A stretch of DNA of 64,000 nt from NCBI GenBank assembly GCA_017940575.1, contig JAGAYJ010000032.1:11158-75157 (forward strand), read 5' to 3'. A program made the translations under genes and the position numbers. Source of the stretch: Bacilli bacterium (lineage in GTDB: Bacteria; Bacillota_I; Bacilli_A; RF39; UBA660). Shown piece after piece: positions 1,266 to 62,277 of the stretch. Each line of letters begins with the position of its first letter. The stretch's first letter is position 1. The notes under the pieces are model-generated. The model was not told the DNA's origin, made no database searches, and saw only the letters and a program-made list of their open reading frames with translations.

Positions 1266-2501
1266 TTATTTAATTATGAATGGATTTGTAGAAGTTCCTG
1301 TTGCTGTATCAATATTTGATATATGAGTATTTGAATCAAGTGTAACTACTGCATATATTTGTTTATTATTAACTGGTCCAGTAAGAGCTAGAGTACCATC
1401 ACTATTAACAAACCAAATTTGTGTGCCATTATTATTAAGTGTCCATGTAGTACTAGATGAACCAAACATTTCTTTTAAATAATTATTTTCACTACATGCA
1501 CTTGATAAAAAGTTAGAATCACAAGTGGATGCTGATGCATTTACATAATCAAGTATTGATATCGTACCAACCTTTTGACTTGATAAATTATCTATATTAT
1601 TACTATTTAAAGTTGATTTTAAAGCATCAATTGAGAATTCATTAGATTCAACTTTGCCAATCAAATAATCAGCATTTATTATTTTGTTTGTGTCATAAGC
1701 TATTCCATCATCATCTATTTTTTTCATCAATAGTTCATTTAATGATGACTCTTTAAATGTAATTTGTTCATCCTTATTCCATGTATTAGTTGCAATTGGT
1801 GTTGTACTAATTAGTTTAACTTTATAGTTTTTCTTATCTATACTAAGTATTCTCCATGATGTATTTTTAGAGTTACCACTAGAATCTTTTCCCGTTAAAG
1901 TAACATAGTTATTAGGACTTGTTCCTCTAAATACATATTCACTTTCTAAATCATATAATCCACTATCAGTTTGACCAGAAACTTTTATATTTTTTTTATT
2001 CATTTCATATATAGCATATCCTGTTGATACTGCTTCTTTAGAAGATGATTCTTTTATAAATGTCTTTGCTGATCTATCGTAGGAATAAATGATATAACCA
2101 AATTCTTCATCAATATTTGATTCATTTGCATATGTAGAGCATGTCTTTTCATCATAAATATAGTTATATTTTTTATTATCTTGATTATATCTTATTCTAA
2201 TACAACCATTCATTGTTGATCTATCGCGTGGATTTTTAATTGGATCAGGTTCTAAATAGCCAGAAAATCTTAGAGACTCTAAGCTTATATATATATCATT
2301 AGCATGTGTATTATCTAATAAATCTATATTATTACTTGCCCATTTTTCACTAGCTAATTGTATATCTAAAATTTGGGAATTATATAAGTCTTCCTTTGAA
2401 TCATTAATAACCTTAGCAATATTTGGAAATATTATTAATGATGTAATTGAAAGAATTATTATTACTGAAAGTAATTCTATTAAAGTAAATCCTTTTTTCA
2501 T
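1266..2501 (-). CDS. Prepilin-type N-terminal cleavage/methylation domain protein (large pilin-like, about 411 aa)
   Basis: Preferred start is M8 (MKKGFTLIELLSVIIILSI...), which has an AGGAGG RBS 7 nt upstream that overlaps the PBP stop codon. The class III signal G|FTLIE is followed by a hydrophobic helix. The C-terminal ~380 aa are unrecognised. Confidence 0.7.
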   Translation of the reverse strand: MKKGFTLIELLSVIIILSITSLIIFPNIAKVINDSKEDLYNSQILDIQLASEKWASNNIDLLDNTHANDIYISLESLRFSGYLEPDPIKNPRDRSTMNGCIRIRYNQDNKKYNYIYDEKTCSTYANESNIDEEFGYIIYSYDRSAKTFIKESSSKEAVSTGYAIYEMNKKNIKVSGQTDSGLYDLESEYVFRGTSPNNYVTLTGKDSSGNSKNTSWRILSIDKKNYKVKLISTTPIATNTWNKDEQITFKESSLNELLMKKIDDDGIAYDTNKIINADYLIGKVESNEFSIDALKSTLNSNNIDNLSSQKVGTISILDYVNASASTCDSNFLSSACSENNYLKEMFGSSSTTWTLNNNGTQIWFVNSDGTLALTGPVNNKQIYAVVTLDSNTHISNIDTATGTSTNPFIIK

Positions 2502-2511
2502 AAATAACCTC

Positions 2512-4686
2512 CTATGTTCCAATATTATATTTATTATTTAATATAACGCTTAATGTCATATCATTTGTAACTGTTGAATCTGCTACAATACTTTGTTCTG
2601 TAACATATCCGTATCCTTCTATATTATACTTAATATTTAACATTTTTGAAAGTGTTATAACATCATTTCTACTAAATCCTGTTATATTTGGCATTTTATA
2701 TTCACTTACATTTGTAAGAAGTATTATTTTCTCACCAGGTGCGAGTTCAGTGCCTTTTATAACTGATTGTTTAGTTATTTTATCGCCATTACCTATTATA
2801 ATTGTTTTAATACCATTTGCTTCTAACTCTGACTTTACATCGCTTGTATTTTTACTAATATATGATTTAACAATATAACTTGTAGTTTGCTTCTCTGTAA
2901 TTTCTGTAAACATATTTTTATATTTAGCTATATTTTGCATCAACGATTTAACATTTGTATATAAGCCTGATGATTTACCCCAACTTGGTTTTTTCATAGC
3001 AGCATATATAATTATCTCTGGATCATCTTTAGGAAACATTCCAGAAAATGAGAATATATAATCGTTATCTCCAGTTGAATATGTACCTGTTTGAACATTA
3101 TAAATCTGACTTGTTCCTGTTTTTCCAATTATATTGAAGCCTTCAATTTTATATGGATATCCAGTTGATCCTGGATCAGTTCCATGAATTACATTATACA
3201 TTAAATCTTTTATCTTATTTACAGTATCAACACTTACTGCATCAGTTTCCTCTACTTTTCTTTTATAAATAACTTCATTAGTATCAGAATCAACTATTTT
3301 ACTTACTATATGTGGTTTTAACATTTTACCATTATTTGAAATAATAGTTAATGCTTGAAGTTGTTGAATAGCAGTTGTAGATATACCTTGACCAAATCCT
3401 GCATTTAAAAATTCTACATCATATGTAAACTTGATATTTCCTTTTGATTCATTAGATAACTCAATTCCTGTTAAAGCGCCAAAACCATACTTTTTAAAGC
3501 ACTCTTTTAATTGTTTTTTACTTATTGAATCATTTTTAGAAAGTAAGTTAGCTATACCAACATTACTAGAGTATTCTAATCCTTTATCATATGAAATATT
3601 GCCCCATCCAGGATGATACCAGTCAAATATAATATCTTCTCCTATTGTATAACTACCAGATAAGAAAGTTTCATTTCCATTATATTTTCCATTTTCCATA
3701 GCGCACATATAAGTGAAAGTTTTCATAACTGAACCTGGTTCATATGTTTTAGTTATAAGTGGATTTTCATAGTCAGTTATATCTCTTAAGTTTGGATTAA
3801 ATGAAGGAGTTGAAGATGAAGCTAAAATATCTCCTGTTTTAGCGTCCATTACACTTATAAGTGCCCATTCAGGGTGATAATTATCTTCTATATTTTTAAC
3901 TGCTGATTCTGTAAATCTTTGAATACCTGAATCAATAGTTAGATATATATCTTCACCATTTTTTGCTGGTATTGATTTTTCTTTTGTACCACTTATTTTA
4001 TATCCATATTTATTTACTTGATATTCTGAGTATCCATCAGTACCAGATAGTTTTTTATTGTATTCTGATTCAATACCCATCTCACCAACTATTTCATTAG
4101 TGATTATTTCGTTATCTTCCTCATCATAGGTTTTAACTTCTGTATTCTTAGCATACCCAATTAAATATGAAGCAAAATTACCATTTGGATAAAATCTCTT
4201 TTGACTTTCTGTAAAACTAATTCCTGGCAAGTTTAAAGCAATTATCTCATCTTTTACAATCTCAGTTAAACCTCTACCGAAACTTCCTAATTCAACTTGG
4301 TATTTATCTTGACTCAATTTTTCTACTAGATAATCTTTCTCACAACCTAAGATAGGCGCAAGTAATTCAGCTGTTTTATCAACATCATGTACATAGTCTT
4401 CTTTTGTATATACTTTACTTTTTTCTAGTGATGCAATAATGGTATATGAACTAACATTTAAAGCTAAACTATTTCCTTCGCTATCATAAATAGTTCCTCT
4501 TTTTGCTTTAATTGTTTTTTTAACAGTATTACGACTAGATGCAAATTCCGTCATATTTTTTCCATATATTGTTGGCGATAAAGATAGATAAGCAAATTTA
4601 ATATATAATAAAAAAATGCAAATAGAAAAAACTAAAAATAAGAATTTTGGTAATTGCCAATTTTTTGTTTTCCCTAATGCATTCAT
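2512..4686 (-). CDS. Class B penicillin-binding protein (PBP2B/FtsI-type transpeptidase) with two C-terminal PASTA domains
   Basis: 724 aa with an N-terminal TM segment. Motifs SxxK (GSVMK), SxN (YSSNVG) and KTG (GKTGTSQ). Sits after ftsL in the dcw cluster. Confidence 0.9.
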   Translation of the reverse strand: MNALGKTKNWQLPKFLFLVFSICIFLLYIKFAYLSLSPTIYGKNMTEFASSRNTVKKTIKAKRGTIYDSEGNSLALNVSSYTIIASLEKSKVYTKEDYVHDVDKTAELLAPILGCEKDYLVEKLSQDKYQVELGSFGRGLTEIVKDEIIALNLPGISFTESQKRFYPNGNFASYLIGYAKNTEVKTYDEEDNEIITNEIVGEMGIESEYNKKLSGTDGYSEYQVNKYGYKISGTKEKSIPAKNGEDIYLTIDSGIQRFTESAVKNIEDNYHPEWALISVMDAKTGDILASSSTPSFNPNLRDITDYENPLITKTYEPGSVMKTFTYMCAMENGKYNGNETFLSGSYTIGEDIIFDWYHPGWGNISYDKGLEYSSNVGIANLLSKNDSISKKQLKECFKKYGFGALTGIELSNESKGNIKFTYDVEFLNAGFGQGISTTAIQQLQALTIISNNGKMLKPHIVSKIVDSDTNEVIYKRKVEETDAVSVDTVNKIKDLMYNVIHGTDPGSTGYPYKIEGFNIIGKTGTSQIYNVQTGTYSTGDNDYIFSFSGMFPKDDPEIIIYAAMKKPSWGKSSGLYTNVKSLMQNIAKYKNMFTEITEKQTTSYIVKSYISKNTSDVKSELEANGIKTIIIGNGDKITKQSVIKGTELAPGEKIILLTNVSEYKMPNITGFSRNDVITLSKMLNIKYNIEGYGYVTEQSIVADSTVTNDMTLSVILNNKYNIGT

Positions 4687-5003: not shown

Positions 5004-5921
5004 TTATTTTATTTTTTCTATTACTCTTAGTTTAGAAGAACGAGCTCTTGGATTATCTTCTAGTTCTTCACGACTTGGTTTTATAACATTTAATGCTTTA
5101 AATTCTTTTTGATATTCCTCTGGTATGAAAGGTAGATTCTTAAATGCATCATCTATCTTAGATACCTCATTAAACATATTTTTTACTATCTTATCTTCTA
5201 GAGAATGGAATGTTATTACACATATTCTTCCATTTTTATTTAAGAGAGTTAAAGCATCAGATAGCGCTATTTTTAAAACATCTAACTCTTTATTTACTTC
5301 AATACGTATTGCTTGAAATACTTTTCTTGCTGGATGTTTTTCTCTTTTGTACTTTTCTGGTACTGCGCTTTTAACTACATCAACTAATTCTAATGTAGTT
5401 TCAATATTTTTATTTTTTCTATATTCAACAATTTTATCAGCAATTTTAGATGAATACTTTTCCTCACCAAATTCTCTAAATATACGAATTAAATCTTCTT
5501 TAGAGTATTCATTTACAACGTTATAAGCAGATAGACTTTGTGTTTGATCCATACGCATATCTAACTTAGCATCTTTATGAAAGGAAAATCCTCTATAGTC
5601 TTCATCTAATTGGGGAGATGAAACACCTAAGTCAAATAATATTCCATCAACTTTTTCAATACCTAGTTTAGATAATTCACTTTTCATATTTTTAAAATTG
5701 CTTCTGACAATTGTGAAATTACTTCCAATGCTATTTAGTCTTTCACGACTACTTTTGATAGCTTCATCATCTTGATCAAATGATATCAATCTACCATTTT
5801 TTATTCTTTTTAATATCTCACTACTATGTCCTGCATAACCAAGTGTTGCATCTACTATTACACTATCTTCCTTTAAGTTTAAGTTTTCTATACATTCATC
5901 TAATAACACTGATTTATGCAT
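5004..5921 (-). CDS. rsmH: 16S rRNA (cytosine1402-N4)-methyltransferase RsmH
   Basis: 305 aa. HKSVLLDE..., DATLGYAGHS, FDLGVSSPQLD. Follows mraZ. Confidence 0.95.
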   Translation of the reverse strand: MHKSVLLDECIENLNLKEDSVIVDATLGYAGHSSEILKRIKNGRLISFDQDDEAIKSSRERLNSIGSNFTIVRSNFKNMKSELSKLGIEKVDGILFDLGVSSPQLDEDYRGFSFHKDAKLDMRMDQTQSLSAYNVVNEYSKEDLIRIFREFGEEKYSSKIADKIVEYRKNKNIETTLELVDVVKSAVPEKYKREKHPARKVFQAIRIEVNKELDVLKIALSDALTLLNKNGRICVITFHSLEDKIVKNMFNEVSKIDDAFKNLPFIPEEYQKEFKALNVIKPSREELEDNPRARSSKLRVIEKIK

Positions 5922-6348
5922 TATATTCTACAGTGAATAGTTTCTCAGCAATGTCTGAAAGATTTTCTTCATTATCTGTAATAAATTTATTCCAAGATTC
6001 TTTATCCCAGATTTCAATTCTTTCATTAACACCTATGATAACGCAGTCTTTAGTTAAATTAGCATAACTTTTTAGTGATGATACTATATTGATTCTTCCT
6101 TGTTTATCAAAATCATTTTGATCTGCTCCTGATAAGAAGAATCTCATGAATGCTCTGGCATCTTTAGTATTAGGTAATTCTTTATATTTAGAAATAACAT
6201 TATCCCATTCTTCTTTAGGATAGACAAATAAACATTTATCTAAACCACGCGTAACAATAAAGTTAGAACCTAATTTCTCTCTAAATTTAGATGGAATTGT
6301 AAGTCTTCCTTTATCATCAATTGTGTAATTATATTCCCCCATAAACAT
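5914..6348 (-). CDS. mraZ: Transcriptional regulator MraZ
   Basis: MFMGEYNYTIDDKGRLTIPSKFR is the typical MraZ N-terminus with duplicated SpoVT/AbrB-like halves. The ORF-track extension (MDESGKKWVII) reads through the operator/RBS region, so the start is set at 6348. Confidence 0.93.
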   Translation of the reverse strand: MFMGEYNYTIDDKGRLTIPSKFREKLGSNFIVTRGLDKCLFVYPKEEWDNVISKYKELPNTKDARAFMRFFLSGADQNDFDKQGRINIVSSLKSYANLTKDCVIIGVNERIEIWDKESWNKFITDNEENLSDIAEKLFTVEYNA

Positions 6349-6357
6349 AATAATCAC

Positions 6358-6392
6358 CCACTTTTTGCCACTTTCATCCACTTGCTACCACT
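6358..6392 (-). promoter_or_regulatory. Putative MraZ operator: four AGTGG direct repeats with exact 10-nt phasing
   Basis: Minus strand reads AGTGGtagcaAGTGGatgaaAGTGGcaaaaAGTGGgtga (CCACT on the plus strand at 6358, 6368, 6378, 6388). It lies directly downstream of a TTTACA-17-TAAAAT promoter. MraZ proteins are known to bind phased GTGG/TGGG repeats upstream of mraZ. Confidence 0.6.
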
Positions 6393-15737: not shown

Positions 15738-16823
15738 TTATGAACTATTTCTAGAAATATTTAAAAGTATTCCCATAGAACAAAGTGTAATAAGTAAACT
15801 AGAGCCACCATATGAGAAAAATGGGAGTGTTACTCCTGTAACTGGAATAAGACCTACTACCACCATTAAATTAAGTATTGCTTGAAAAGATAGTTCAAAT
15901 GTTATTCCAAAAGCTAAATACTTTCTAAATAGATCTTGTGAATTTATAGCTATTTTAAAGCCTTTATAAATAATTATTAAGAATAAAGTAGATACAATTA
16001 TTATTCCCATAAAGCCAAATTCCTCAGCTATTATAGAGAATATAAAATCAGTTTGAGGTTCAGGAAGATAAAAATGTTTTTGTCTTGAATTTAGAAAACC
16101 ATATCCAAATAAACCTGATGGACCTATAGCATATAAACTCTGTATTATTTGAAATCCACTACCTAAAGGATCACTCCATGGATTTATAAAAGATATTATT
16201 CTCTTTAGTCTATATGGAGCCATAATAATTAAACCAATTATTCCTGCAACTCCAATTAATCCAAGTTTTATAAAAAACTTTAGATTTGCGCCTGCAACAA
16301 ACAAAAGCCCTATAATAGACATTACAATTATTACACCAGTACCAAAGTCAGGTTGTAACATAATAAGTAAAAATATAAACATAGTAACACCTAATATAGG
16401 AAGAACACACTCTTTTAATTTTTTTATATTTTTTTGATTAAGTGATAAATATTTAGAGGCATAAATAATAAGTATTAATTTAGCTGCTTCACTAGGCTGG
16501 ATTCCTAAAGGACCTATTCCAAACCAACTACGTGATCCATTTCTAACGGTTCCTATACCTGGTATAAGTACAAGTATTAATAAAACAATTATAGCAAGTA
16601 GTAATTTATTTGAATTATCATATATTTTTTTATAATCAATTTTACTAATTATAATCATTAAAAATATTCCTAATATAAAGAATAACAATTGATGTTTAAC
16701 AAACTTAAATTGATCATTAAACTTATATTCGGCCCATATATTTGAGGCTGAATAAATCATAATTATACCAAAGATAGATGCAAGTATAACTGTTATAAAA
16801 AGTGTTTTATCAAACTTTCTCAT
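15738..16823 (-). CDS. ftsW: SEDS-family peptidoglycan glycosyltransferase FtsW/RodA/SpoVE
   Basis: Polytopic protein with PEPQTDFIFSIIAEEFGF and [14 protein letters not shown]. The start is set at the ATG (MRKFDKTLF...) that overlaps the mraY stop as ATGA. The ORF-track start at 16907 would overlap mraY by 88 nt. Confidence 0.9.
   Translation of the reverse strand: MRKFDKTLFITVILASIFGIIMIYSASNIWAEYKFNDQFKFVKHQLLFFILGIFLMIIISKIDYKKIYDNSNKLLLAIIVLLILVLIPGIGTVRNGSRSWFGIGPLGIQPSEAAKLILIIYASKYLSLNQKNIKKLKECVLPILGVTMFIFLLIMLQPDFGTGVIIVMSIIGLLFVAGANLKFFIKLGLIGVAGIIGLIIMAPYRLKRIISFINPWSDPLGSGFQIIQSLYAIGPSGLFGYGFLNSRQKHFYLPEPQTDFIFSIIAEEFGFMGIIIVSTLFLIIIYKGFKIAINSQDLFRKYLAFGITFELSFQAILNLMVVVGLIPVTGVTLPFFSYGGSSLLITLCSMGILLNISRNSS
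15768..15836. repeat. 69-bp direct repeat, copy B (inside the live ftsW 3' end)
   Basis: See copy A. The two copies bracket only the GNAT gene. Confidence 0.9.
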
Positions 16824-17812
16824 AGCCACACTCCATAAATAAGTGCAACTATGGCTGCAATTAAACCAATTGTCCAAAATAGTTTTACTATATCTCTTTC
16901 TTTCCAACCCATTTTTTCTAATGAGTGATGAATAGGTGCCATTGGAAAAAGTCTTTTTTTAGTTAATTTATAATAATATCTTTGAATAATACAAGACATA
17001 GTCTCAATTACAAATACAATGCCAATTAAAACAAGTAAAAGTTCATGACGAGTTAAAATTGCAATACTACCTAAGGTTGCACCCAAAGTTAAAGAACCAG
17101 TATCACCCATAAATATTTTAGCTGGATTTACATTATAAAATAGAAAACCTAAGATGGATCCAGCTAGTACAAAACAAAACAAACTAATTTCTAAATATCC
17201 TTCTAACCAACCTGTATTTAAGCTTAAAACACCAAATGTTAAAAACGCTATAAAAGATAAACCTCCAGCAAGCCCATCCAAGCCATCTGTTAAATTAACA
17301 GCATTTGAACTTGCAACTAAAACAAAAAGAATAAATAATCCATAAAACCATCCAATATCTAATTTTATATGAAGTGAATGTATCCATAGTAATGGTTCAT
17401 TATCAGCTCTTAAAAAAAGAAGAAAGAAAACAACTGCTATTATTGCTTGATAAAGAAGTTTTTGTGTCTCACTAAGCCCATCATTATTATGTCTTTTTAT
17501 TATTAAATAATCATCTATAAATCCTATTAAAAAGTAACCAAGAAAGGTAAATAAAACAATAAATAAATTATATGATAAATCTATTTTTTTTAATATATAA
17601 AAGAATGTTAAGATAACAATTGAAGATATAATAAATATAATGCCACCCATGGTTGGTGTATGCTTTTTTGTTTTGTGTCTTTCACTTAAATAAATGCTCA
17701 AATTTTGATTTATATTAAAATGGTGTAAGAAAGGAATTATTATAAATCCAAGTACTATAGAAAAGATAAATGCTGATAAGAAACCTATCAATAAAAGTAT
17801 TAATGTTCTCAA
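16820..17812 (-). CDS. mraY: Phospho-N-acetylmuramoyl-pentapeptide transferase MraY
   Basis: 330 aa. GFIDDY, NAVNLTDGLDGLA, MGDTGSLTLG and PIHHSLE motifs. Confidence 0.93.
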   Translation of the reverse strand: MRTLILLLIGFLSAFIFSIVLGFIIIPFLHHFNINQNLSIYLSERHKTKKHTPTMGGIIFIISSIVILTFFYILKKIDLSYNLFIVLFTFLGYFLIGFIDDYLIIKRHNNDGLSETQKLLYQAIIAVVFFLLFLRADNEPLLWIHSLHIKLDIGWFYGLFILFVLVASSNAVNLTDGLDGLAGGLSFIAFLTFGVLSLNTGWLEGYLEISLFCFVLAGSILGFLFYNVNPAKIFMGDTGSLTLGATLGSIAILTRHELLLVLIGIVFVIETMSCIIQRYYYKLTKKRLFPMAPIHHSLEKMGWKERDIVKLFWTIGLIAAIVALIYGVWL

Positions 17813-17821
17813 CTTTGCACC

Positions 17822-19726
17822 TCACTTAAGCATTAATTTTACAACTTCACCTTCATATATTCTCTCACCACTTTTAGGTGTTTGATAAATTACGCTATTA
17901 CCAGCACCTGAGTATTCTACTTTAAAGGGTTTTAGTTCCGTTATTGCTTCTTTTAGAGTTTTGCCAACAACATTAGGAACTGTTACATATTTTTTTTCAT
18001 TAAAGTTATAATTCTTTTCACTTGCACCACTTGGTTTTTTTATGTTTAAAATATCAATTGAATCTTTTAATATATTTCTAACTATTGGAGCTGCTATAGT
18101 ACCTCCGTACTGTGTAATTCCTTTAGCATTATCAATTGCAACATAAACTACTATCTCAGGTTTATTAGCTGGCATAAAGCCCATAAATGAAACTATATAG
18201 TTGCCACTCATATAATGTCCGTCTTTAACTTTCTGAGCAGTACCAGTCTTACCACCTACTCTATAACCATCTATAAATGCATTTCTACCTGTACCATTTG
18301 TAACAACACTTTCTAGTGCATATCTAACCTTCTCACTAGTAGACTCTGATATAACTTTTCTAACTATTTTAGGACTATTTTGTTTTATAACAGTATTAGT
18401 CTCAGGTTCATTTATACTTTTTACTATATATGGCTTATATAAAATACCACCATTAATAGCTGCTGATACGGCTGTAATTTGTTGAATTGGCGTTACACTT
18501 ACACCTTGTCCAAAAGATGTAGTTGCAAGTTCAACTGGACCTACTTTATCTAAGTTAAAAAGAATTCCTTTAGCCTCACCATTTAAATCAACACCTGTTT
18601 TATTACCGAATCCAAACTTTTTAATATATTCAAATAGTTTTTCTTTACCTATCTTTTGTCCCATTACAACAAATCCTGGATTACAAGAGTTTTCTACTAC
18701 TTGAAGGAAAGTCTCTTCGCCATGTCCTCCTGCTTTCCAACATTTTATTCTTGCATTTTCAACACTTATTCTACCAGAATCATAGTAGTGATCATTCTCT
18801 AAGTCTATTAAATTTTCATCAAGTGCGGTTGCTAAAGTAATTATTTTAAAAGTACTTCCAGGTTCATATGTTGCCCAAATAGGTAGATTTCTATTTAGTT
18901 CTTCTACATTATATTTTTGATAATTTGAAGGTGAAAAATTAGGACGTGCTGTAATAGCTAAAATTTCACCATTATTCGGATTCATTATAATTCCTATTGC
19001 TTGATCTGGATTATATTTGCCCCATGCATTATCTATTTCTCTTTCTAATACTTTTTGAAGCTCTGCATTTATAGTAAGAGTTAAATTCATTCCATCTTGT
19101 GGCTCCAAGTACGTCTCTTCTAACTCTAACTTTCCTCCTTTAGCATCACTTATATATTTAATAGCTCCATATTCACCAGTTAAGTATTTATCATACATTA
19201 ACTCTAGCCCACTTAAACCTTGATTATCTATTCCAACATAACCAAGTGTATGAGCAAGCATCTTATCATTTGGATAAAATCTTTTAGATTCTTTTACTAA
19301 ATATACACCATCTAATTTTAGACTATTTATCTTATCTGCTATATCAAATGATAATCTTCTACCTTCTGGATGTACTCTTTCAATAGATGTTTTTTTAGAT
19401 ACATGAGCTAACATATCTTTATATGATGTATTTAAAATATTTGATAATTCCTTAGCTGTTTTTTCCTTGTCTTTTATTTGATTTGGAATAAGTACTAAAG
19501 ATACAGTTGTTTTATTATCAGCTAAAACAACTCCTTTACTATCGTATATTTTTCCTCTATCTGCTTCTATTGGTAAGTTTCTATTCCAAAGTAAATCAGC
19601 AAGTTTATTTAATTTTTTATAGTTAAATACCTGTATATAAAATACTTTAAAAATGATTAAAAAAAACAAAAGTATTATTCCTACAAATACTAGTTTAATT
19701 CTAATATGTATATTTTTATAGAACAT
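17822..19726 (-). CDS. Class B penicillin-binding protein (SpoVD/FtsI-like) with one PASTA domain
   Basis: 634 aa. SxxK (GSTFK), SxN (ENSCN region) and KTG (GGKTGTAQ), plus a C-terminal PASTA domain. Sits upstream of mraY. Confidence 0.9.
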   Translation of the reverse strand: MFYKNIHIRIKLVFVGIILLFFLIIFKVFYIQVFNYKKLNKLADLLWNRNLPIEADRGKIYDSKGVVLADNKTTVSLVLIPNQIKDKEKTAKELSNILNTSYKDMLAHVSKKTSIERVHPEGRRLSFDIADKINSLKLDGVYLVKESKRFYPNDKMLAHTLGYVGIDNQGLSGLELMYDKYLTGEYGAIKYISDAKGGKLELEETYLEPQDGMNLTLTINAELQKVLEREIDNAWGKYNPDQAIGIIMNPNNGEILAITARPNFSPSNYQKYNVEELNRNLPIWATYEPGSTFKIITLATALDENLIDLENDHYYDSGRISVENARIKCWKAGGHGEETFLQVVENSCNPGFVVMGQKIGKEKLFEYIKKFGFGNKTGVDLNGEAKGILFNLDKVGPVELATTSFGQGVSVTPIQQITAVSAAINGGILYKPYIVKSINEPETNTVIKQNSPKIVRKVISESTSEKVRYALESVVTNGTGRNAFIDGYRVGGKTGTAQKVKDGHYMSGNYIVSFMGFMPANKPEIVVYVAIDNAKGITQYGGTIAAPIVRNILKDSIDILNIKKPSGASEKNYNFNEKKYVTVPNVVGKTLKEAITELKPFKVEYSGAGNSVIYQTPKSGERIYEGEVVKLMLK

Positions 19727-27052: not shown

Positions 27053-27535
27053 TTATTCAAAAGATTCATCATAATTCTCACTTTTATAGTTTTCACCACA
27101 TCTTAAATATGGACTATAAGTATTATTTCCATCGTAAACTATATAACCAATGCATTTATTTTCTTTATCTTTTGGATCATATAAATCTTCCATATATTCA
27201 TCACTTACTAATTTAGATGTTTTAATAATTATTCTATCAGTTTTTCCTGTATAGTTAGTTGTTACATAAACTTTAGCAGTACTAACCATTTTTTCAAGTA
27301 AAATATCATATCCTGTTATTTTTTTATTATCTTCTTTACTCTCTTCTTTATTTTTATCCTCTATTATTTCTACATTTTCTAACTTTTTAACTTCACTTAC
27401 ATGTTTTATATCATCTACTTCACTATTAATATTCATAAAATTTCTATCAATAACAATAACACATATAACAAGTATAATCAAGAAAAAAGAAATAAAGAAT
27501 AGTAAATCTTGAAGTGTGAATCCTTTATTATTCAT
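27053..27535 (-). CDS. Prepilin-type N-terminal domain protein (divergent pseudopilin-like)
   Basis: MNNKGFTLQDLLFFISFFLIILV. The G|FTLQD signal has Asp instead of Glu at +5. The start overlaps the NrtR-like gene by 8 nt. Confidence 0.6.
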   Translation of the reverse strand: MNNKGFTLQDLLFFISFFLIILVICVIVIDRNFMNINSEVDDIKHVSEVKKLENVEIIEDKNKEESKEDNKKITGYDILLEKMVSTAKVYVTTNYTGKTDRIIIKTSKLVSDEYMEDLYDPKDKENKCIGYIVYDGNNTYSPYLRCGENYKSENYDESFE

Positions 27536-28868: not shown

Positions 28869-29798
28869 CTAAGAGCATACAGCTGCACCACCGCCAAGGA
28901 CATCGCATCCACCAACATCGTAAGCATAGACGGTCACAGTGCCATCAGAACTCGCATACGCATAGACAGAGTCGCCATAGCAGCGGACACCGTTAGAATC
29001 AACACCGCAGCTATCGTTTCCAAATGTATTTAATAATAATGTTTTATTTTGCTCAAATTTAGAAACATCTGCACTTCTCTCTAAGCAAAATTCTTGTCCA
29101 TTATTACCACATACATCAATTTCTTCTATTATCTCATTTGAATTTAATGTATGTTTTAAATAGACGTTCCAACTTGCATCTGGACTTGTCTTATAATCTA
29201 GATTTGGTGTTGTAAAATTTGATGCAACACATTCACCAGGTAGATTTGAATTATGACATTCCTCTTCTGTATTAAATGGAATATCTATATTATTATATGT
29301 AGTAAATACATATTTACTTCCCATATCTTGATTTGCATCAATTGGGTATCCTACATGTGTTGCTCCATTTACTCTGCTATATACAACGTTTGGATAACTA
29401 TTATCTACAACACAGTTATTTTCTTTAGTAGAACTTTTAATTTTATTATTCTCTACTACTACTTTATATTTTCCTATACATAAAGTAGATGATGATACTT
29501 TACCATTTGATAAGGCAACATATCCACTACTAGGAGTTTGTCCTTTTACTTTAACTCCTTTACTAATTAGTTCTGATACATTATATCTACTATTTAAATC
29601 AATTTTATTTGCCTCAGTTAGTTCATTTAACATAGCTTGTTTTTCTACAGCGTCAATCCATCCTAAAGCAGATGATTCTGCTCCTCCTTTTCTTGCTTTC
29701 TCAACAATACCTGAAATAGTTGGAACAGCAATTAAAGCAATGATTGCTAGTATTACTATTACTGCAAGTAATTCTATAAGTGTAAAACCTTTTTTCAT
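28869..29798 (-). CDS. Type IV pilin-like protein (prepilin N-terminus) with a compositionally foreign Cys/Gly-rich C-terminal tail
   Basis: MKKGFTLIELLAVIVILAIIALIAVP... The N-terminal ~60 aa are paralogous to the pilin-like gene at 47556-48017. The last ~47 codons are about 53% G+C. Confidence 0.75.
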   Translation of the reverse strand: MKKGFTLIELLAVIVILAIIALIAVPTISGIVEKARKGGAESSALGWIDAVEKQAMLNELTEANKIDLNSRYNVSELISKGVKVKGQTPSSGYVALSNGKVSSSTLCIGKYKVVVENNKIKSSTKENNCVVDNSYPNVVYSRVNGATHVGYPIDANQDMGSKYVFTTYNNIDIPFNTEEECHNSNLPGECVASNFTTPNLDYKTSPDASWNVYLKHTLNSNEIIEEIDVCGNNGQEFCLERSADVSKFEQNKTLLLNTFGNDSCGVDSNGVRCYGDSVYAYASSDGTVTVYAYDVGGCDVLGGGAAVCS

Positions 29799-29941: not shown

Positions 29942-30750
29942 ATGAATAATTTAAAAATAACAAATTCAAATTTCTAAATATTAAACATATTGATGAAAAT
30001 GGATTAGAATATTGGAATGCAAGAAAGTTAATGAAAGCTTTAGAATATACTGAATATAGAAAATTTCTACCAGTAATTAATAAAGCAATTATATCTTGCG
30101 AAAACATTAATCATAATAAAAATAACCATTTTGTTGATGTCAACAAAATGGTCAATATTGGTTCCAATACATCTAGAACAATAAAAGATTACAAGTTATC
30201 AAGATATGCCTGTTATCTTATTGCTCAAAATGCTGATTCAAGAAAAAAAGTTGTAGCTTTCGCTCAAACATACTTTGCTTATCAAACAAGAAAACAGGAA
30301 CTATTAGAACAAAACTATAATATGCTTACTGAAGAAGATAAAAGAATATTTAATAGAAAATTAACTAAAAAAGGAAACTATGAACTTAATCAAACGGCTT
30401 TAAAAGCAGGCGTTAGAAACTTTGGTAAATTCCGAAACGTTGGATATAAAGGTTTATATAATGGAGAAACTGCTGATGATATTGCAAAAAGAAAGAATCT
30501 TCATTATAGAGAAGAAATACTTGACCATATGGGAAGCGAAGAGTTAGCTGATAATTTATTTAGAATAGTTCAAACAGAATCTAAGATTAGAAATGAAAAA
30601 ATTATTGGAGAAGATAATTGTAGTAAAACACACTATGATATGGGACATAATATTAGAGAATTTATAAAAAATAATGGAGGAACTATGCCTGAGAACTTAC
30701 CTACTCCAAAGCATAGTTTAAAAGAAATAGAAAATAAAAAAGAGAGTTAA
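29942..30750 (+). pseudogene. dinD: dinD-family (DNA-damage-inducible protein D-like) gene with an N-terminal frameshift
   Basis: An ATG at 29942 with a GAAGGA RBS encodes MNNLKITNSNF, then TAA at 29975. The -1 frame continues NIKHIDENGLEYWNARKLMKALEY..., colinear with the intact paralog at 61444-62277 (MSKIILKNSIFEDIKHIDEEELEYWSARELQKVLGY). The ORF track starts only at the internal Met (30031). Confidence 0.6.
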
Positions 30751-45832: not shown

Positions 45833-46723
45833 TTATATTAATTGATATTCTCTAACCACTATTCTTTCATCTGAACAGTATTCAATAACAAATTTATTTT
45901 CTCTTTTACAAATTAATATTCCCATTGTATTATTATTTCCATATTCTTTAATATTTTTATCTATATAATTCATATACTTTTGAACTTGTGATATATATTC
46001 TACTTTAAATTCAGTTACTTTAAGTTCTACTACAACATAAGAATTATACTTTATATTAAATAGTAAAAAATCAATATAATGATTTTTATCACCTATTTTT
46101 ATCTTGTATTCACCACCTATGAAGCTAATCGAGTTACCAAGACCTTTCATAAATGATTCTATATCTTCTAATATTAACTGATGTAAGGCTTTTTCATTAG
46201 TTATTTCTGTACTATTCCTATTCCTAATTAATATAGGATTTGGAACTAAATCTTGTAGTTCAATCTTTTCGTCGTTTATAAGTTTATTCTTTGTTTCAAT
46301 AGGTAATCTTTCATATTCCCTATTTTTAATAATCTCTCTAAGCTTATTTCTACTTAAGTTTCTTTTAACACATTGTTCAAAATAATAGTTTATTTCATTT
46401 ATGTCTTTTAATGGTAATAACTCCGAATAATGACTCCATGTCAATTGTGTCGCCACTGGCGACACTTTTCTATTTTTAAACATATTATAAAATTGTTTCA
46501 TTCTAAATAAAGTTCTTCGATTATATTTTTTACCAACTTCTAAAACTAATTTTTTAGAATATTCTTCTATTATATTATCTCCATATTTTCCACCAGCTTC
46601 ATTTAATAATTTGCCAATTTCAAAATATGTCATAACTTTATGTCTTTCTTTTGAATAATCTTTAACTCTCGAATATACTTCGTTATCTATTAGTTTATTC
46701 TTTATCTCATTATAATAATTCAT
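45833..46723 (-). CDS. DUF1016/YhcG-family PD-(D/E)XK nuclease-like protein
   Basis: LTWSHYSELLPL..., and a C-terminal core YIDFLLFN...VVVELKVTEF. The start is at MNYYNEIKN, behind AAAGGAG. Confidence 0.7.
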   Translation of the reverse strand: MNYYNEIKNKLIDNEVYSRVKDYSKERHKVMTYFEIGKLLNEAGGKYGDNIIEEYSKKLVLEVGKKYNRRTLFRMKQFYNMFKNRKVSPVATQLTWSHYSELLPLKDINEINYYFEQCVKRNLSRNKLREIIKNREYERLPIETKNKLINDEKIELQDLVPNPILIRNRNSTEITNEKALHQLILEDIESFMKGLGNSISFIGGEYKIKIGDKNHYIDFLLFNIKYNSYVVVELKVTEFKVEYISQVQKYMNYIDKNIKEYGNNNTMGILICKRENKFVIEYCSDERIVVREYQLI

Positions 46724-46797
46724 ATTGCTCCTTTCTACGATATACATTCTTAAAGATCTAATTTGTTAGTTTTACATTACCTAATAGAAAAAAGAAT

Positions 46798-46825
46798 ATT
46801 TACAACATACTGCATTTTTATTATA
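46798..46825. repeat. Promoter/leader repeat, copy 1
   Basis: TTTACAACATACTGCATTTTTATTATA on the plus strand. It overlaps the -10 element and the start of the 5' UTR of the DUF1016 gene. Confidence 0.6.
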
Positions 46826-46848
46826 GCGAACGCTTGTACGTATGTCAA
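46820..46848 (-). promoter_or_regulatory. Consensus promoter of the DUF1016 gene with a LexA (Cheo) box in the spacer
   Basis: Minus strand: TTGACA-taCGTACAAGCGTTCGc-TATAAT (17-nt spacer). On the plus strand the box reads CGAACGCTTGTACG (46827-46840), one mismatch from CGAAC-N4-GTTCG. Confidence 0.6.
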
Positions 46849-47555: not shown

Positions 47556-48017
47556 TTAACCTCTTAAATCATCTAAAGCATCTGCTACAGATTTTCCATC
47601 TTTATATTCTACTTGACTAGCATCAGTAATCTCTTCTTCACATTTTTTAATAGCTTTTGCTAATCCATTACTATATTCAACAGTATAATTACTAATACAC
47701 ATAGATGCACTTTCAACTTTATTGCTTGAAATTACTATTGTTCCGCTTGTAGGTTTTTTACCTTTTACTGATACATTATACTTGCTTTCTAGTGGAAGTT
47801 CTAATTCACCAGTAGGAATTTCATTTTCACCTTTAACTTGATTTAAAAGCATTGCTTTTTCAACGGCATCAATATATCCTATTGCACTAGCCTCAGCTGA
47901 TCCTTTTTTAGCTTTTTCAATTACACTTCTAAGAGCAACTGTAGTAATTAATGCTATAATTGCAAGTATTACAATAACCGCAAGTAACTCAATTAGTGTA
48001 AAACCTTTTTTTGTCAT
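47556..48017 (-). CDS. Type IV pilin-like protein
   Basis: MTKKGFTLIELLAVIVILAIIALITT... It stops 1 nt before the tail-collar gene start. Confidence 0.75.
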   Translation of the reverse strand: MTKKGFTLIELLAVIVILAIIALITTVALRSVIEKAKKGSAEASAIGYIDAVEKAMLLNQVKGENEIPTGELELPLESKYNVSVKGKKPTSGTIVISSNKVESASMCISNYTVEYSNGLAKAIKKCEEEITDASQVEYKDGKSVADALDDLRG

Positions 48018-48075: not shown

Positions 48076-49818
48076 TTATTCTAATACTGCTTTAATTCTT
48101 CTAACACCTGCTGAAGATGCTTCTTCTTTTTTTATTTTAAAGTGACCTAGTTCACTTGTATTTTTAACATGTGGTCCACCGCATAATTCTTTTGATACAT
48201 CACCAATTGAATATACGGTTACTTGATCTGGATATTTTTCTATAAACATACATTCAGCACCACTGTCTATTGCCTCTTGTTTTGACATAGAATCAACTCT
48301 TACATCAAGCCCTTCTTTAATCCATTCATTAACTAATTCTTCTACTTTGTTTTTCTCTTCATCAGTTAATTTATGATCACAGTTAAAGTCAAAACGCATT
48401 CTCTCTTCTGTTATATTAGACCCCCTTTGATGAGTATCAGGATCTACTACTACTTTTAATGCTGCATTAAGTAAGTGTGTTGCTGTATGATATTTAGTTT
48501 CAATCTCACTATTACCAGCAAGTCCACCTTTAAATTTACCTTGAGATGCACCTCTAGATAATTCTTGATGTTCTCTAAATTTTGTTTTAAATCCTTGGAC
48601 ATCAACAGAAAGGCCTCTATCTTTAGCTTCTTCTATAGTTAACTCAATAGGAAATCCATATGTATCATATAAATGGAATGCTTGAGTTGCATCTATACTA
48701 TTTGCTTTACTTGCTATTTTTTCAAATTCTCTTAAACCTTTTTCTAAAGTTCTATTGAATTTAATTTTTTCATTTTTTAACACTTCAAGTACTACTTCTT
48801 TATTTTGTTCTAACTCACTATAATATTTAGAATATAATTCTATTATTTTATTAGCAAGTATTTGTTCCCAATCAGAATTAATATCAATGTTTAATTTTTT
48901 AGCTGTTCTAATTGTTCTTCTAATTAGTCTTCTTAAGATATAGCCTTGATCTGTATTAGATGGCTTTATACCTGCAGGATCAGCAGATATAAATACACTT
49001 GTTCTAATGTGATCAGCTATAATTCTCATTTCACGTTCATGTCCAATATATGTAAGGCCTGATATTTCTTCAATTAAATTAATAACTGGAGTCCAAATAG
49101 AAGATTCATAGTTATCAAGTTTTCCTTCTAATATTGCAGTAGTTCTTTCAACTCCCATACCAGTATCTACATTTTTATTAGGAAGTTCTGTATATGTACC
49201 ATCAGCGTGTTTTTCATATTGCATAAATACGTCATTCCAAATTTCAACCCATCTTTCATCCTCTGGATCAAATTTAGCTGGTATTTCATCATCGCTTCTA
49301 AAATAAAACATTTCAGAGTCTGGTCCACAAGGTCCAGTTTCACCTGCTATCCAAAAGTTATCATTACTAGTTGGTGCGATTCTATCTTCTGGAATTCCAA
49401 GAGAAATCCATATATCATGAGCTTCCTTATCAAATGGAATCTCATCATTACCAGCAAATATAGTAACACCAAGTCTCTCAACTGGAATATTTAATACTTT
49501 AGTTAAAAATTCAAAACTCCAAGTAATTGCTTCTTTTTTAAAATAATCTCCAAGTGACCAGTTACCAAGCATTTCAAAGAATGTATGATGATATGTATCA
49601 CCAATATTTTCTAGGTCATTTGTTCTAACACATTTTTGATAATCTGTAAGTCTTGTTCCATATGGATGTTTAGCACCTAATAAATATGGAATTAATGGTT
49701 GCATACCAGCAGTATTAAATAATACTGAAGGATCATTTTCAGGAACTACAGGACTACTTGGTATTTGTTTATGTCCTTTACTTACGAAATAATTTATATA
49801 TAAGTCTTTAAGATTCAT
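48076..49818 (-). CDS. alaS: Alanine--tRNA ligase, short form (580 aa, no C-Ala domain)
   Basis: The N-terminal class II core (FNTAGMQPL, HHTFFEMLGNWS), an editing-domain HxxxH (HTATHLLN) and CGGPHV. The protein ends right after the editing domain. Confidence 0.8.
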   Translation of the reverse strand: MNLKDLYINYFVSKGHKQIPSSPVVPENDPSVLFNTAGMQPLIPYLLGAKHPYGTRLTDYQKCVRTNDLENIGDTYHHTFFEMLGNWSLGDYFKKEAITWSFEFLTKVLNIPVERLGVTIFAGNDEIPFDKEAHDIWISLGIPEDRIAPTSNDNFWIAGETGPCGPDSEMFYFRSDDEIPAKFDPEDERWVEIWNDVFMQYEKHADGTYTELPNKNVDTGMGVERTTAILEGKLDNYESSIWTPVINLIEEISGLTYIGHEREMRIIADHIRTSVFISADPAGIKPSNTDQGYILRRLIRRTIRTAKKLNIDINSDWEQILANKIIELYSKYYSELEQNKEVVLEVLKNEKIKFNRTLEKGLREFEKIASKANSIDATQAFHLYDTYGFPIELTIEEAKDRGLSVDVQGFKTKFREHQELSRGASQGKFKGGLAGNSEIETKYHTATHLLNAALKVVVDPDTHQRGSNITEERMRFDFNCDHKLTDEEKNKVEELVNEWIKEGLDVRVDSMSKQEAIDSGAECMFIEKYPDQVTVYSIGDVSKELCGGPHVKNTSELGHFKIKKEEASSAGVRRIKAVLE

Positions 49819-51526: not shown

Positions 51527-51628
51527 AAAATCACCTAATAATATTATAGCAAAAAAAAAAGTTAATATAAACAATTAATTGTCTAGTTGTACTATTTTAG
51601 ACATATTAATCAATATTTTATATTAACA

Positions 51629-51715
51629 CTATGCCATATAAGCAACCATAATTATAAAAAACATAGCTATAATCATTGTTTTACTTTCTACTAAATCTCT
51701 TAATACACATACCAT
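51629..51715 (-). CDS. Unannotated 28-aa hydrophobic peptide divergent from lexA: MVCVLRDLVESKTMIIAMFFIIMVAYMA
   Basis: ATG preceded by AAAGGGA at 7-nt spacing. It is driven by TTGACA-17-TATTAT, whose spacer is a LexA box. It is too short for the ORF track. Confidence 0.45.
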   Translation of the reverse strand: MVCVLRDLVESKTMIIAMFFIIMVAYMA

Positions 51716-51739
51716 ACTATCATCCCTTTCGTTAAATTA

Positions 51740-51768
51740 ATAATAACACGAACAAAACTTCGTGTCAA
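51740..51768 (-). promoter_or_regulatory. Promoter of the 28-aa ORF with LexA box 1 in the spacer
   Basis: Minus strand: TTGACA-CGAAGTTTTGTTCGtgt-TATTAT. On the plus strand box 1 reads CGAACAAAACTTCG (51749-51762). Confidence 0.6.
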
Positions 51769-51777
51769 CAGTTTTAA

Positions 51778-51817
51778 CGAACAAAAGTTTGACTTTACAT
51801 TTTTTTTATGATATTAT
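51778..51817 (+). promoter_or_regulatory. lexA promoter with LexA box 2 overlapping the -35 element
   Basis: CGAACAAAAGTTTG (51778-51791), TTGACT (51789-51794), 17-nt spacer, TATTAT (51812-51817). Confidence 0.6.
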
Positions 51818-51846
51818 ATACATGTAAGTTAAAAAAGGAGGTTTAT

Positions 51847-52464
51847 ATGGAAAAATTAACTAAAAGACAAGAAGATATTTTAGACTATATAAAAAAATAT
51901 ATTGTTGCTCATGGATTTCCACCTACTATTAGAGAAATAGGTGCAGCTCTTGATTTATCTAGTCCAGCAACAATACATGCACATCTTGCTAATCTAGAAA
52001 AAAAAGGTTTTATTAAAAAACAAGATTCTAAAAATAGAACATTAGAATTACTTGTTGATAATGAATATGATGTTAAAGATGAATTAACTATAGAAGTTCC
52101 TTTACTTGGTAAAATCACTGCAGGAAATCCAATTGAAGCAATTGAACATCCTGATGAGTTTTTTCCAATTCCATCATATTTAATTCCAAAAGGAAAAGAT
52201 GTATTTACACTAAATGTACATGGTGAAAGTATGATAAATGCAGGAATTCTTGATGGTGATATCGTAATTGTTGAAAAATCTAATACTGCAAGAAACGGTC
52301 AGATAGTAGTTGCAATGACAGACGAAAAAGAAGTAACACTTAAAACATTCTATAAAGAAAAAGATCATATAAGACTTCAACCTGAAAATGATTCAATGGA
52401 ACCATTTATATTTAAAAATGTGAAAATACTAGGTATAGCAATCGGATTATACAGAAAAATATAG
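51847..52464 (+). CDS. lexA: SOS repressor LexA
   Basis: MEKLTKRQEDILDYIKKYI...GFPPTIREIG (wHTH), the VPLLGKITAG cleavage-site region, and the GESM...K peptidase S24 domain. The start is at 51847, behind AAGGAGG. Confidence 0.93.
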   Translation: MEKLTKRQEDILDYIKKYIVAHGFPPTIREIGAALDLSSPATIHAHLANLEKKGFIKKQDSKNRTLELLVDNEYDVKDELTIEVPLLGKITAGNPIEAIEHPDEFFPIPSYLIPKGKDVFTLNVHGESMINAGILDGDIVIVEKSNTARNGQIVVAMTDEKEVTLKTFYKEKDHIRLQPENDSMEPFIFKNVKILGIAIGLYRKI

Positions 52465-61443: not shown

Positions 61444-62277
61444 TTACAACATTTGACTCATTTTTTTACATGTTTCTCTATTTGTTTTAAGTTCTTTTAA
61501 ACTTTTATTTGGAGTTGGTAAATTCTCAGGCATTAAACCACCAGCCTCTTTTATAGCCTTCCTAACAATTTTTCCAATTTGATTATGAGCTACATTACAA
61601 TTATTTTCACCCATTATATTTTCATTTTTTATTTTAGATTCTGCTTGCGTAATTCTAAACAAATTAGCTGCTAGTTCTACACTTCCCATATTATCTAGTA
61701 TATCCTCTCTATATCTTAAGTTTTTTCTTTTTGCTATGTCGTTTGCAGTCTCACCATTGTATAAACCTTTATATCCAGCATTATGAAATTTATCAAAGTT
61801 TTTAACTCCACTTTTACTAGCAGTTTTATTTAACAATAAATTAGCTTTTTTAGTTAAGTCTCTTTGGTATTTTCTCCGTTCCAATTCAGTTAGTTCATCA
61901 ATATTTGTCTCTAATAATTCTTGCTTTCTTGCCTGTATTGCAAAATAAGTTTGAGCAAGAGCTATATTTTCTAAATGTGAATCACCATTTTGAGCAATCA
62001 AATAGCATGCGTAGCGTGATAGTTTATAATCTATAATTTTTCTTTTTGTCATAGACCCTATATTAACCATTTTGTCCAATTGGACAAAATGGTTTAAAAC
62101 ATTATCACCACTTTTTATACATGAGGTTTTAGCCTTTCCAATAATATTATTAAATTTTCTCCATTCCTTGTATCCTAATACTTTTTGAAGTTCTCTCGCA
62201 CTCCAATATTCTAATTCCTCTTCATCAATATGTTTAATATCTTCAAATATAGAATTTTTTAATATAATTTTACTCAT
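61444..62277 (-). CDS. dinD: DNA-damage-inducible protein D family protein (intact copy)
   Basis: 277 aa. EYWSARELQKVLGY...MVNIGSMTKRKIIDYKLSRYACYLIAQNGD...AQTYFA. C-terminal GGLMPENLPTP. Confidence 0.75.
   Translation of the reverse strand: MSKIILKNSIFEDIKHIDEEELEYWSARELQKVLGYKEWRKFNNIIGKAKTSCIKSGDNVLNHFVQLDKMVNIGSMTKRKIIDYKLSRYACYLIAQNGDSHLENIALAQTYFAIQARKQELLETNIDELTELERRKYQRDLTKKANLLLNKTASKSGVKNFDKFHNAGYKGLYNGETANDIAKRKNLRYREDILDNMGSVELAANLFRITQAESKIKNENIMGENNCNVAHNQIGKIVRKAIKEAGGLMPENLPTPNKSLKELKTNRETCKKMSQML

Follow-up and report, generated by a model that had tools for sequence, protein, structure and literature searches.

The stretch considered here (the window) comprises 64,000 nucleotides (nt) of a Bacilli bacterium of the RF39 lineage (assembly GCA_017940575.1, contig JAGAYJ010000032.1, positions 11,158 to 75,157 of the forward strand). 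Divergently from its gene for the SOS repressor LexA, it contains a 28-codon open reading frame (ORF) which, judged by the conservation of its frame, is a real gene and belongs to a family that is new by sequence and unannotated. We believe, with a probability of roughly 0.55, that the family encodes a LexA-repressed, membrane-anchored checkpoint peptide that would delay septation by binding the synthase formed by FtsW and a class B penicillin-binding protein (PBP); the proposal is made by analogy. The copy in the window is, on alignment with its relatives, a derived and species-specific truncation of a family whose members usually have 42-51 residues. The kind of gene is already known: small membrane proteins under an SOS box are familiar from the lexA/yneA locus.

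The small gene opposite lexA and its family

The gene at 51847..52464 encodes a bona fide LexA, with both LexA domains of Pfam (Table 1); in its translation we find the Ala-Gly cleavage site (ITAGNPI) as well as the catalytic motifs with the GESM serine and the TLK lysine. Its nearest relatives come from uncultured gut "Bacilli/Tenericutes" metagenome-assembled genomes, e.g., CAG:822 and Candidatus Coprosoma (complete genomes of 1.3-1.5 Mb), which we class, presumptively, as RF39-like reduced Bacilli; LexA identity to these relatives is 59-97%. A LexA query with one genome per species yielded 80 loci, and a metagenome scan yielded 80 more (such loci are numbered L001, L081, etc.). The search with a hidden Markov model (HMM) of the family covered 161 loci and the window.

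Of the RF39-like genome loci, 44 include enough upstream DNA for a comparison, and 35 of these have a small ORF on the corresponding strand, starting equally far from lexA; typical members are MEFLKCKSVIALVVMILGVSYISALDNATIQSHAQDNNINVVEKA (45 residues) and MKEMVKSKSIIGFVIFVLGVVYINTPSLSYSDENQEILDSQETNYTYNI (49 residues). The HMM gave 56 matches among 20,935 stop-to-stop pieces of 20-120 codons, including metagenome loci outside the model-building set, and every match lies on the strand opposite lexA, at most 300 nt upstream of it. In the window the distance to the lexA ATG is 131 nt, and the same divergent arrangement is found in 56/56 loci.

The ratio of nonsynonymous to synonymous changes (pN/pS), computed for 19 members of one clade, equals 0.19 across the N-terminus and the transmembrane (TM) helix vs. 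0.62 in the tail, and variation is greatest at the third codon position. Four 32-residue alleles give a pN/pS of 0.16, and one of their serines is written TCT, AGC or TCG. Since the frame is conserved in relatives with a low pN/pS, we consider the small ORF a real coding gene. The first-pass annotation of this DNA, made from the sequence letters, had proposed, among other checks, a comparison of short ORFs opposite lexA in related genomes; coding conservation is indeed present there (56 loci, pN/pS 0.16-0.19 over the N-terminus and helix).

A word-indexed protein database has 49 clusters of the family at 90% identity; these contain no Pfam domain, and their sole name is "hypothetical protein". 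When 1.84 billion representatives were searched exhaustively with HMMER, the family comprised 148 clusters at 50% identity, with lengths of 34-85 residues, none of them named and none with a Pfam or NCBIfam match. Scans of six or seven members against Pfam, NCBIfam and PHROGs at permissive thresholds returned only noise, and a tblastn comparison of a family member with phage genomes returned no match. The suggestion that the peptide could represent an undescribed family is thus upheld, considering the conserved coding frame, the lack of Pfam, NCBIfam and PHROG matches and the invariable orientation away from lexA.

The control region agrees with its first description in all details. Two Cheo-type LexA boxes lie upstream of lexA; box 2 overlaps the -35 element of the lexA promoter (TTGACT-17-TATTAT), and box 1 lies in the spacer of an oppositely oriented promoter (TTGACA-17-TATTAT), where it takes the first 14 of the 17 nt. 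Each box differs from CGAAC-N4-GTTCG by one mismatch, and only three such one-mismatch sites exist in the 64-kb window. Box 1 is part of the extended palindrome CACGAA..TTCGTG. Box 2 is kept in relatives as (C/T)(G/A)AAC-N4-GTTTG, as is the lexA -35 element; its position over this element implies autoregulation of lexA. Box 1, predicted as a LexA operator in a near-consensus promoter, has counterparts throughout the family: a box abutting the -35 element is retained in 30 of 32 distinct promoter sequences, with the layout TTGAC(A/G), C(G/A)AAN-N4-GTT(C/T)G, TGn, TAnnnT and a spacer of invariably 17 nt.

The ribosome-binding site AAAGGGA and the 28-codon ORF that had been reported behind the divergent promoter were likewise confirmed in position and sequence; in relatives the sequence this far from the start is GGGAGG or GGAGG. 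Transcription is predicted to start at about 51733, which leaves a leader of ~18 nt. The terminator-like hairpin behind the stop codon has a folding energy of -16 kcal/mol (z -3.97; none of 200 shuffles was as stable), and the promoter of the AI-2E permease gene that follows overlaps with the 3' arm and the U-run; L001, L002 and L081 also have a hairpin and U8 after the ORF, with differing stem sequences. Because the hairpin and U10 follow right after the stop, the small ORF appears to constitute a self-contained transcript of ~180 nt. The predicted whole transcript has no unusual structure (fold z -0.82), and an Rfam scan of 51300-52000 found nothing but a sub-threshold, spurious match to a snoRNA (small nucleolar RNA). 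Considering the short leader, the strong Shine-Dalgarno sequence and the unremarkable fold, control appears to be purely transcriptional. A 22-residue "ORF" at 51700..51768 is merely translated promoter and box DNA, and we rejected it as a gene.

Two observations can be added on related elements. In the clade with the N-terminus ME[FIL]LKCK (L003-L028), ~130 nt upstream of lexA on the minus strand, two overlapping ATGs follow the Shine-Dalgarno sequence (GGGAGGTATGAAATATGGAA); the first opens an out-of-frame mini-ORF of 8 codons (MKYGIFKM), and the second, optimally spaced, opens the real gene. It is possible that the mini-ORF tunes translation, or it may have no significance. The third Cheo-type box of the window, CGAACGCTTGTACG (46827-46840), also lies inside a promoter spacer (TTGACA-TACGTACAAGCGTTCGC-TATAAT, 46820-46848, minus strand); the gene behind it (45833..46747, minus strand) encodes a 304-residue YhcG/DUF1016 nuclease of the PDDEXK type (Pfam 2.6e-31, 2.4e-26) and, by virtue of this box, is a candidate member of the SOS regulon.

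Family members consist of an N-terminal flank with a net charge of +1 to +5, an uncharged segment of 15-20 residues and a tail of ~20 residues, which is mostly acidic (net -2 to -6). According to the positive-inside rule, this charge pattern indicates an N-in, C-out orientation; the prediction is, therefore, a single N-terminal TM helix with the C-terminus outside. AlphaFold2, applied to the family alignment, gives one helix with confidence only over the TM part; the tail has low confidence, so that the model is uninformative beyond topology. Conservation among 180 distinct members is highest for a Lys that precedes the helix (95%), an acidic residue close to the N-terminus (90%), a Gly in the helix (89%) and a Tyr or Phe three residues on (89%), with the Asn of a C-terminal [IV]-x-x-N-x end at 72%. 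With its conserved Gly and aromatic residue, the helix would seem more likely to pack specifically against another helix than to damage membranes in a generic way. As for the C-terminal motif, it is retained even in the 32-residue forms (..G-[IL]-N-Y), despite the loss of the remainder of the tail; a role as a protease or turnover tag, similar to that of the SosA C-terminus, would be speculation.

The gene order around lexA in B. subtilis, which we take to be lexA, yneA-yneB-ynzC, tkt, sirA (yneE), yneF, serves as a reference for the position of the family. The locus tags BSU17880 and BSU17910 correspond to ynzC and yneF, respectively (PMC3814617). Downstream of the small ORF we find tkt (transketolase, Pfam 3.5e-111) in L005, L019, L029, L032 and L047, a UPF0154/YneF gene (1.4e-24) in L003-L028, and, in L030 and L042, a gene of the SirA family (6e-06, above the Pfam cut-off) with yneF behind it. 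With tkt, sirA or yneF as the next gene in relatives, the family occupies the yneA position of B. subtilis, and this synteny strengthens the earlier analogy with the yneA and sosA positions. More distant loci of Clostridia from the same scan (L050, L053-L055, L058), Lachnospiraceae among them, have there classic YneA-like genes of 100-146 residues with a TM helix and LysM, together with Cheo boxes. The window's clade has instead an AI-2E permease and a deoxynucleoside monophosphate (dNMP) kinase downstream, in the order QueH, lexA, small ORF, AI-2E permease, dNMP kinase, alanyl-tRNA synthetase (AlaRS). A shrunken yneA and a replacement of it are both compatible with the data.

The shortened copy in the window

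The peptide had been read as a miniature effector; its 28 residues are, however, not typical of the family, whose norm is 42-51 residues, and the closest relatives (L001, L002, L081, L161-164) all have 32. The 32-residue form is MVYV[LF]KDLVESKTMI[IM]AMLF[IV]IGV[LM]YL[SC]G[IL]NY and retains the Gly, the Tyr and the -N-Y end; LexA of L001, L002 and L081 is 95-97% identical to that of the window. The metagenome scan contributed one new allele of this clade (L081), and an exact-protein look-up contributed one more (P0049).

The window's peptide has a short N-terminus (residues 1-12) and a hydrophobic segment of 16 residues that extends to its C-terminus. Compared with the 32-residue form, codons 1-22 are conserved (pN 0.06-0.09) and codons 23-28 have diverged (pN ~0.55). 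DNA identity to the relatives is 80-95% over lexA and the permease gene and falls to 38-53% in 51578-51637 only. In the MAFFT alignment a net 7 nt have been added after Tyr26 and ahead of the ancestral stop, so that a frame shift would follow; nevertheless, we do not claim a defined 7-nt insertion as the cause of the truncation, considering that pairwise alignment of this AT-rich 3' region is ambiguous. Six independently assembled metagenome contigs with identical LexA have the same 307 nt (0-1 mismatch) and the same 28-residue ORF; the allele is, therefore, no assembly artefact and is fixed in the species. Its promoter, box, ribosome-binding site, start codon and terminator are intact.

Proposed function and competing explanations

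We presume the following mechanism. In undamaged cells, LexA dimers would occupy box 2 at the lexA -35 element and box 1 in the spacer of the small-ORF promoter and, as in the standard mechanism, would keep RNA polymerase from using either promoter. Upon DNA damage, RecA-stimulated self-cleavage of LexA would free the near-consensus promoter of the small ORF, and the ~180-nt transcript (18-nt leader, good Shine-Dalgarno sequence, 28 codons, hairpin and U10) would be translated without further control. The peptide would enter the membrane with its N-terminus inside, leaving a short acidic tail outside in the normal family form, and would bind the septal synthase (FtsW and class B PBP) in the membrane plane, with a delay of septation as the result. 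We propose this delay because the position, regulation and topology resemble those of YneA, SosA and SidA; the truncated copy may be weakened or altered in its activity.

The window itself encodes FtsW of the SEDS (shape, elongation, division and sporulation) family (2e-114), two class B PBPs with PASTA domains, MraY, MraZ and RsmH, so the organism has a septal peptidoglycan machine, and FtsW and the two PBPs are candidate targets of the peptide. Most RF39 species are predicted to be walled with peptidoglycan (PMC10868615). The division and cell-wall genes are located at 2512..4686, 5004..6381 and 15738..19726 (all on the minus strand), with ftsW at 15741-16826 and a PBP gene at 17825-19726, despite the "Tenericutes"-like labels of the relatives.

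YneA, SosA, ChiZ and DivS form a functional class of small, SOS-induced membrane inhibitors of division whose genes lie next to lexA. Small single-TM inhibitors of division that are adjacent to lexA, SOS-controlled and without sequence conservation across lineages have been described, and both YneA and SosA have the N-in, C-out topology (PMC6851548). The TM helix of YneA binds TM7 of FtsW, and SosA, ChiZ and SidA have been modelled on the same helix, SidA on the face opposite to that of YneA and SosA (PMC13396833). Like the present family, YneA (B. subtilis, Listeria and the YneA-like proteins of Lachnospiraceae) is encoded divergently from lexA with a Cheo box in the promoter and is a small product with a single N-in TM helix; the relatives of the window also share the tkt, sirA, yneF neighbourhood. 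It differs in having ~100-146 residues and an essential extracellular LysM, compared with 42-51 residues (28 in the window) and no LysM here, and in being followed by yneB and ynzC, neither of which follows the gene in RF39-like loci.

SosA of Staphylococcus (77 residues) is likewise divergent from lexA, controlled by LexA (as predicted here) and restricted to its lineage, and it resembles the normal family form in its N-terminal TM helix followed by an extracellular C-terminal part without LysM. Its extreme C-terminus is a turnover signal, and the family ends in [IV]xxN-x. However, SosA has ~45 extracellular residues with a conserved and essential membrane-proximal segment, whereas the family tail has ~20 poorly constrained residues and is absent in the window; no sequence similarity between the two was detected. 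SidA of Caulobacter crescentus (29 residues) is SOS-induced, has about the size of the window's peptide, is essentially a bare TM helix and acts on FtsW/FtsI late in division. Its host is a Gram-negative alphaproteobacterium whose LexA box differs, no homology to the family was detected and, to our knowledge, the SidA gene is not adjacent to lexA.

A number of points weigh against the checkpoint proposal. The TM helix of YneA alone binds FtsW and does not block division, for which LysM is required (PMC13396833); the membrane-proximal extracellular segment of SosA is essential (PMC6851548). As already noticed in the first-pass annotation, there is no similarity to YneA: hhalign gives a probability of 1% against the YneA-like proteins of L050-L055, and there is no NCBIfam match, so that the functional link is drawn from position and architecture only. 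LysM gives no match even at E <= 10, while the Lachnospiraceae control does match it, and none of the 148 cluster representatives exceeds 85 residues. The tail of normal members evolves almost freely, as its pN/pS indicates. In the window, Met23 replaces the conserved Gly, the frame ends four codons early with the loss of the C-terminal Asn motif, and no extracellular residues remain; SidA is the only precedent for an inhibitor that is a bare TM helix. Since the Gly and the Asn motif are lost, the activity of the 28-residue allele is uncertain.

One alternative is that this allele is inactivated or decaying and the family is functional, which is compatible with the checkpoint proposal at the family level and which we consider a serious possibility, with odds clearly below even. 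It is favoured by the purifying selection on the 32-residue alleles of the rest of the closest clade, the divergence confined to codons 23-28 and the adjacent DNA, the change of Gly23 to Met, the absence of the G-[IL]-N-Y end and the frame-shifting extra nucleotides before the ancestral stop, and it agrees with the need for an extracellular part in YneA and SosA (PMC13396833, PMC6851548). On the other hand, all expression signals and the first 22 codons are intact, the allele is fixed across six independent samples, and the new end is still hydrophobic and retains Val24 and Tyr26. Also, SidA functions as a 29-residue TM peptide, SosA without its last 10 residues is more rather than less active (PMC6851548), and the mutational event is not reconstructable from the ambiguous alignment.

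A toxin of the TisB/DinQ type, which would depolarise or otherwise perturb the membrane and cause dormancy or growth arrest, the divisome not being its target, seems to us unlikely. Its appeal lies in the window allele, an essentially bare hydrophobic helix; the Fst-type toxins, presumably, are loosely alike as well (a TM helix and a charged tail). The E. coli type I toxins TisB (29 residues) and DinQ (27 residues; PMC3567139) are LexA-repressed, very small and single-TM, as proposed here, and depolarise the membrane without the divisome as a target. However, they are controlled by the antisense RNAs IstR-1 and AgrB and by processed, structured 5' untranslated regions (UTRs) that gate translation (PMC3567139), and neither feature is present or conserved at the small ORF. 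There is no room for an antisense RNA gene, since in the main clade the promoter of the next gene begins ~25 nt after the stop; a promoter-like site on the plus strand of the window (51623-51652) is not conserved in the closest relatives, as read by eye; and Rfam has no match in the region scanned. The predicted leader of ~18 nt, with its exposed Shine-Dalgarno sequence and the fold z of -0.82, is not a long structured 5' UTR that could mask the ribosome-binding site. Furthermore, the gene is single-copy, chromosomal and in the yneA position, with HMM matches nowhere else in the loci searched; neither phage genomes nor toxin families of PHROGs, Pfam or NCBIfam match it; and the conserved Gly and Tyr of the helix suggest a specific partner.

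Even less probable, in our opinion, is some other role, whether as a modulator of a transporter or of lipids and the envelope or as a leader (upstream) ORF tuning the downstream gene. Many small membrane proteins regulate larger membrane proteins, the small ORF precedes an AI-2E family permease in the window, and the main clade lacks a terminator between it and yneF, which itself encodes a small membrane protein. Nonetheless, the downstream gene varies by clade (tkt, sirA, yneF, holA-like or AI-2E permease) and the link to lexA is constant, which makes a leader or neighbour-regulator role unlikely; the downstream genes have their own promoters, the window's clade has a terminator after the ORF, and conservation of a TM helix at the amino acid level is unexpected for a leader peptide. 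Finally, an ORF present by chance in AT-rich intergenic DNA, with box 1 merely adding to lexA autoregulation, is hardly conceivable any longer. The G+C content of the window is 23-34% (~27% overall), and with such a composition promoter-like hexamers and short ORFs arise readily (a generic scan found 9 promoter-like sites vs. 7.0 expected). However, the perfect pattern TTGACA-N17-TATNAT occurs 5 times against 0.24 expected, i.e., ~20-fold above expectation, and the frame, start context and hydrophobic pattern are conserved over 56 loci and 148 clusters with a pN/pS well below 1; these comparative data refute this explanation.

The checkpoint proposal thus remains our preferred one for the family. 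A stronger version of it, in which the RF39 peptides, including the 28-32-residue forms, would be fully active SOS effectors and a bare helix would suffice against FtsW, appears doubtful to us. If true, it would mean that a bare helix is sufficient in a lineage of the Gram-positive type, contrary to YneA and SosA with their indispensable extracellular parts; it would also provide a minimal natural inhibitor of a SEDS polymerase and a reductive series from TM helix with LysM, through TM helix with tail, to TM helix only. The natural series of 45, 32 and 28 residues could indicate which parts of the inhibitor are minimally required, and it bears on TM7 of FtsW as a common target and on the design of SEDS inhibitors.

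For the large, uncultured, genome-reduced gut group in question, the assignment of a probable SOS checkpoint gene would fill a gap in the SOS regulon, the gene being uncalled (28 residues) or labelled hypothetical there. The lexA/yneA neighbourhood seems to have outlived genome reduction, with the protein replaced or shrunk beyond recognition. No concept is overturned; specialists would anticipate a small membrane protein divergent from lexA.

Coordinates and further observations

Table 1. Features of the lexA region and pilin-like ORFs, in coordinates of the window
Feature	Position	Strand	Basis or details
lexA, SOS repressor, 205 residues	51847..52464	+	Pfam LexA_DNA_bind 2.7e-24 and Peptidase_S24 8.6e-34
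Small ORF, 28 residues, MVCVLRDLVESKTMIIAMFFIIMVAYMA	51629..51715	-	ATG at 51715, TAG 51631-29; family HMM E = 9e-8
Shine-Dalgarno AAAGGGA, 7 nt ahead of ATG	51723..51729	-	sequence inspection
Intrinsic-terminator-like element, AU-rich hairpin (51627..51561) and U10 (51560..51551)	51551..51627	-	fold
LexA (Cheo-type) box 1, CGAACAAAACTTCG	51749..51762	.	in spacer of small-ORF promoter; pattern scan
LexA (Cheo-type) box 2, CGAACAAAAGTTTG	51778..51791	.	overlaps lexA promoter -35; pattern scan
lexA promoter, TTGACT (51789-94)-17 nt-TATTAT (51812-17), TG extension	51789..51817	+	10/12 matches
Small-ORF promoter, TTGACA (51768-63)-17 nt-TGn-TATTAT (51745-40)	51740..51768	-	11/12 matches and TG
Pilin-like ORFs	1266..2522, 27053..27535, 28869..29798, 47556..48017	-	N-terminal motif

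Among the neighbouring genes, the AI-2E permease may be decaying in some strains: in one metagenome contig (L166, 55..1180) it is split into two ORFs of 177 and 210 residues, and in L001 its frame stops early, behind ATGTTTAAA (at about 3690-3700). The alanyl-tRNA synthetase-like gene (48076..49818, minus strand) encodes only 580 residues, and its L161 homolog matches tRNA-synt_2c and tRNA_SAD; the usual bacterial AlaRS has ~870 residues.

Two paralogous proteins of ~240-277 residues, at 30031..30750 (plus strand) and 61444..62277 (minus strand), share the core ..VNIGS.T.R.I.DYKLSRYACYLIAQN.D... and look by eye like the DinD-type "DNA-damage-inducible protein D"; one of the two has a Bro-N match, sub-threshold only (E 1.9e-4), and the scan of the window for Cheo boxes found no LexA box adjoining either gene. 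Four minus-strand ORFs (Table 1) have N-termini similar to those of type IV pilins and pseudopilins (K-G-F-T-L-I/Q-E/D-L-L and a hydrophobic helix). A homolog of one such ORF in a relative has an N_methyl match, flagged as weak in the precomputed Pfam record; these ORFs may form a scattered competence-pilus or type IV pilus set.

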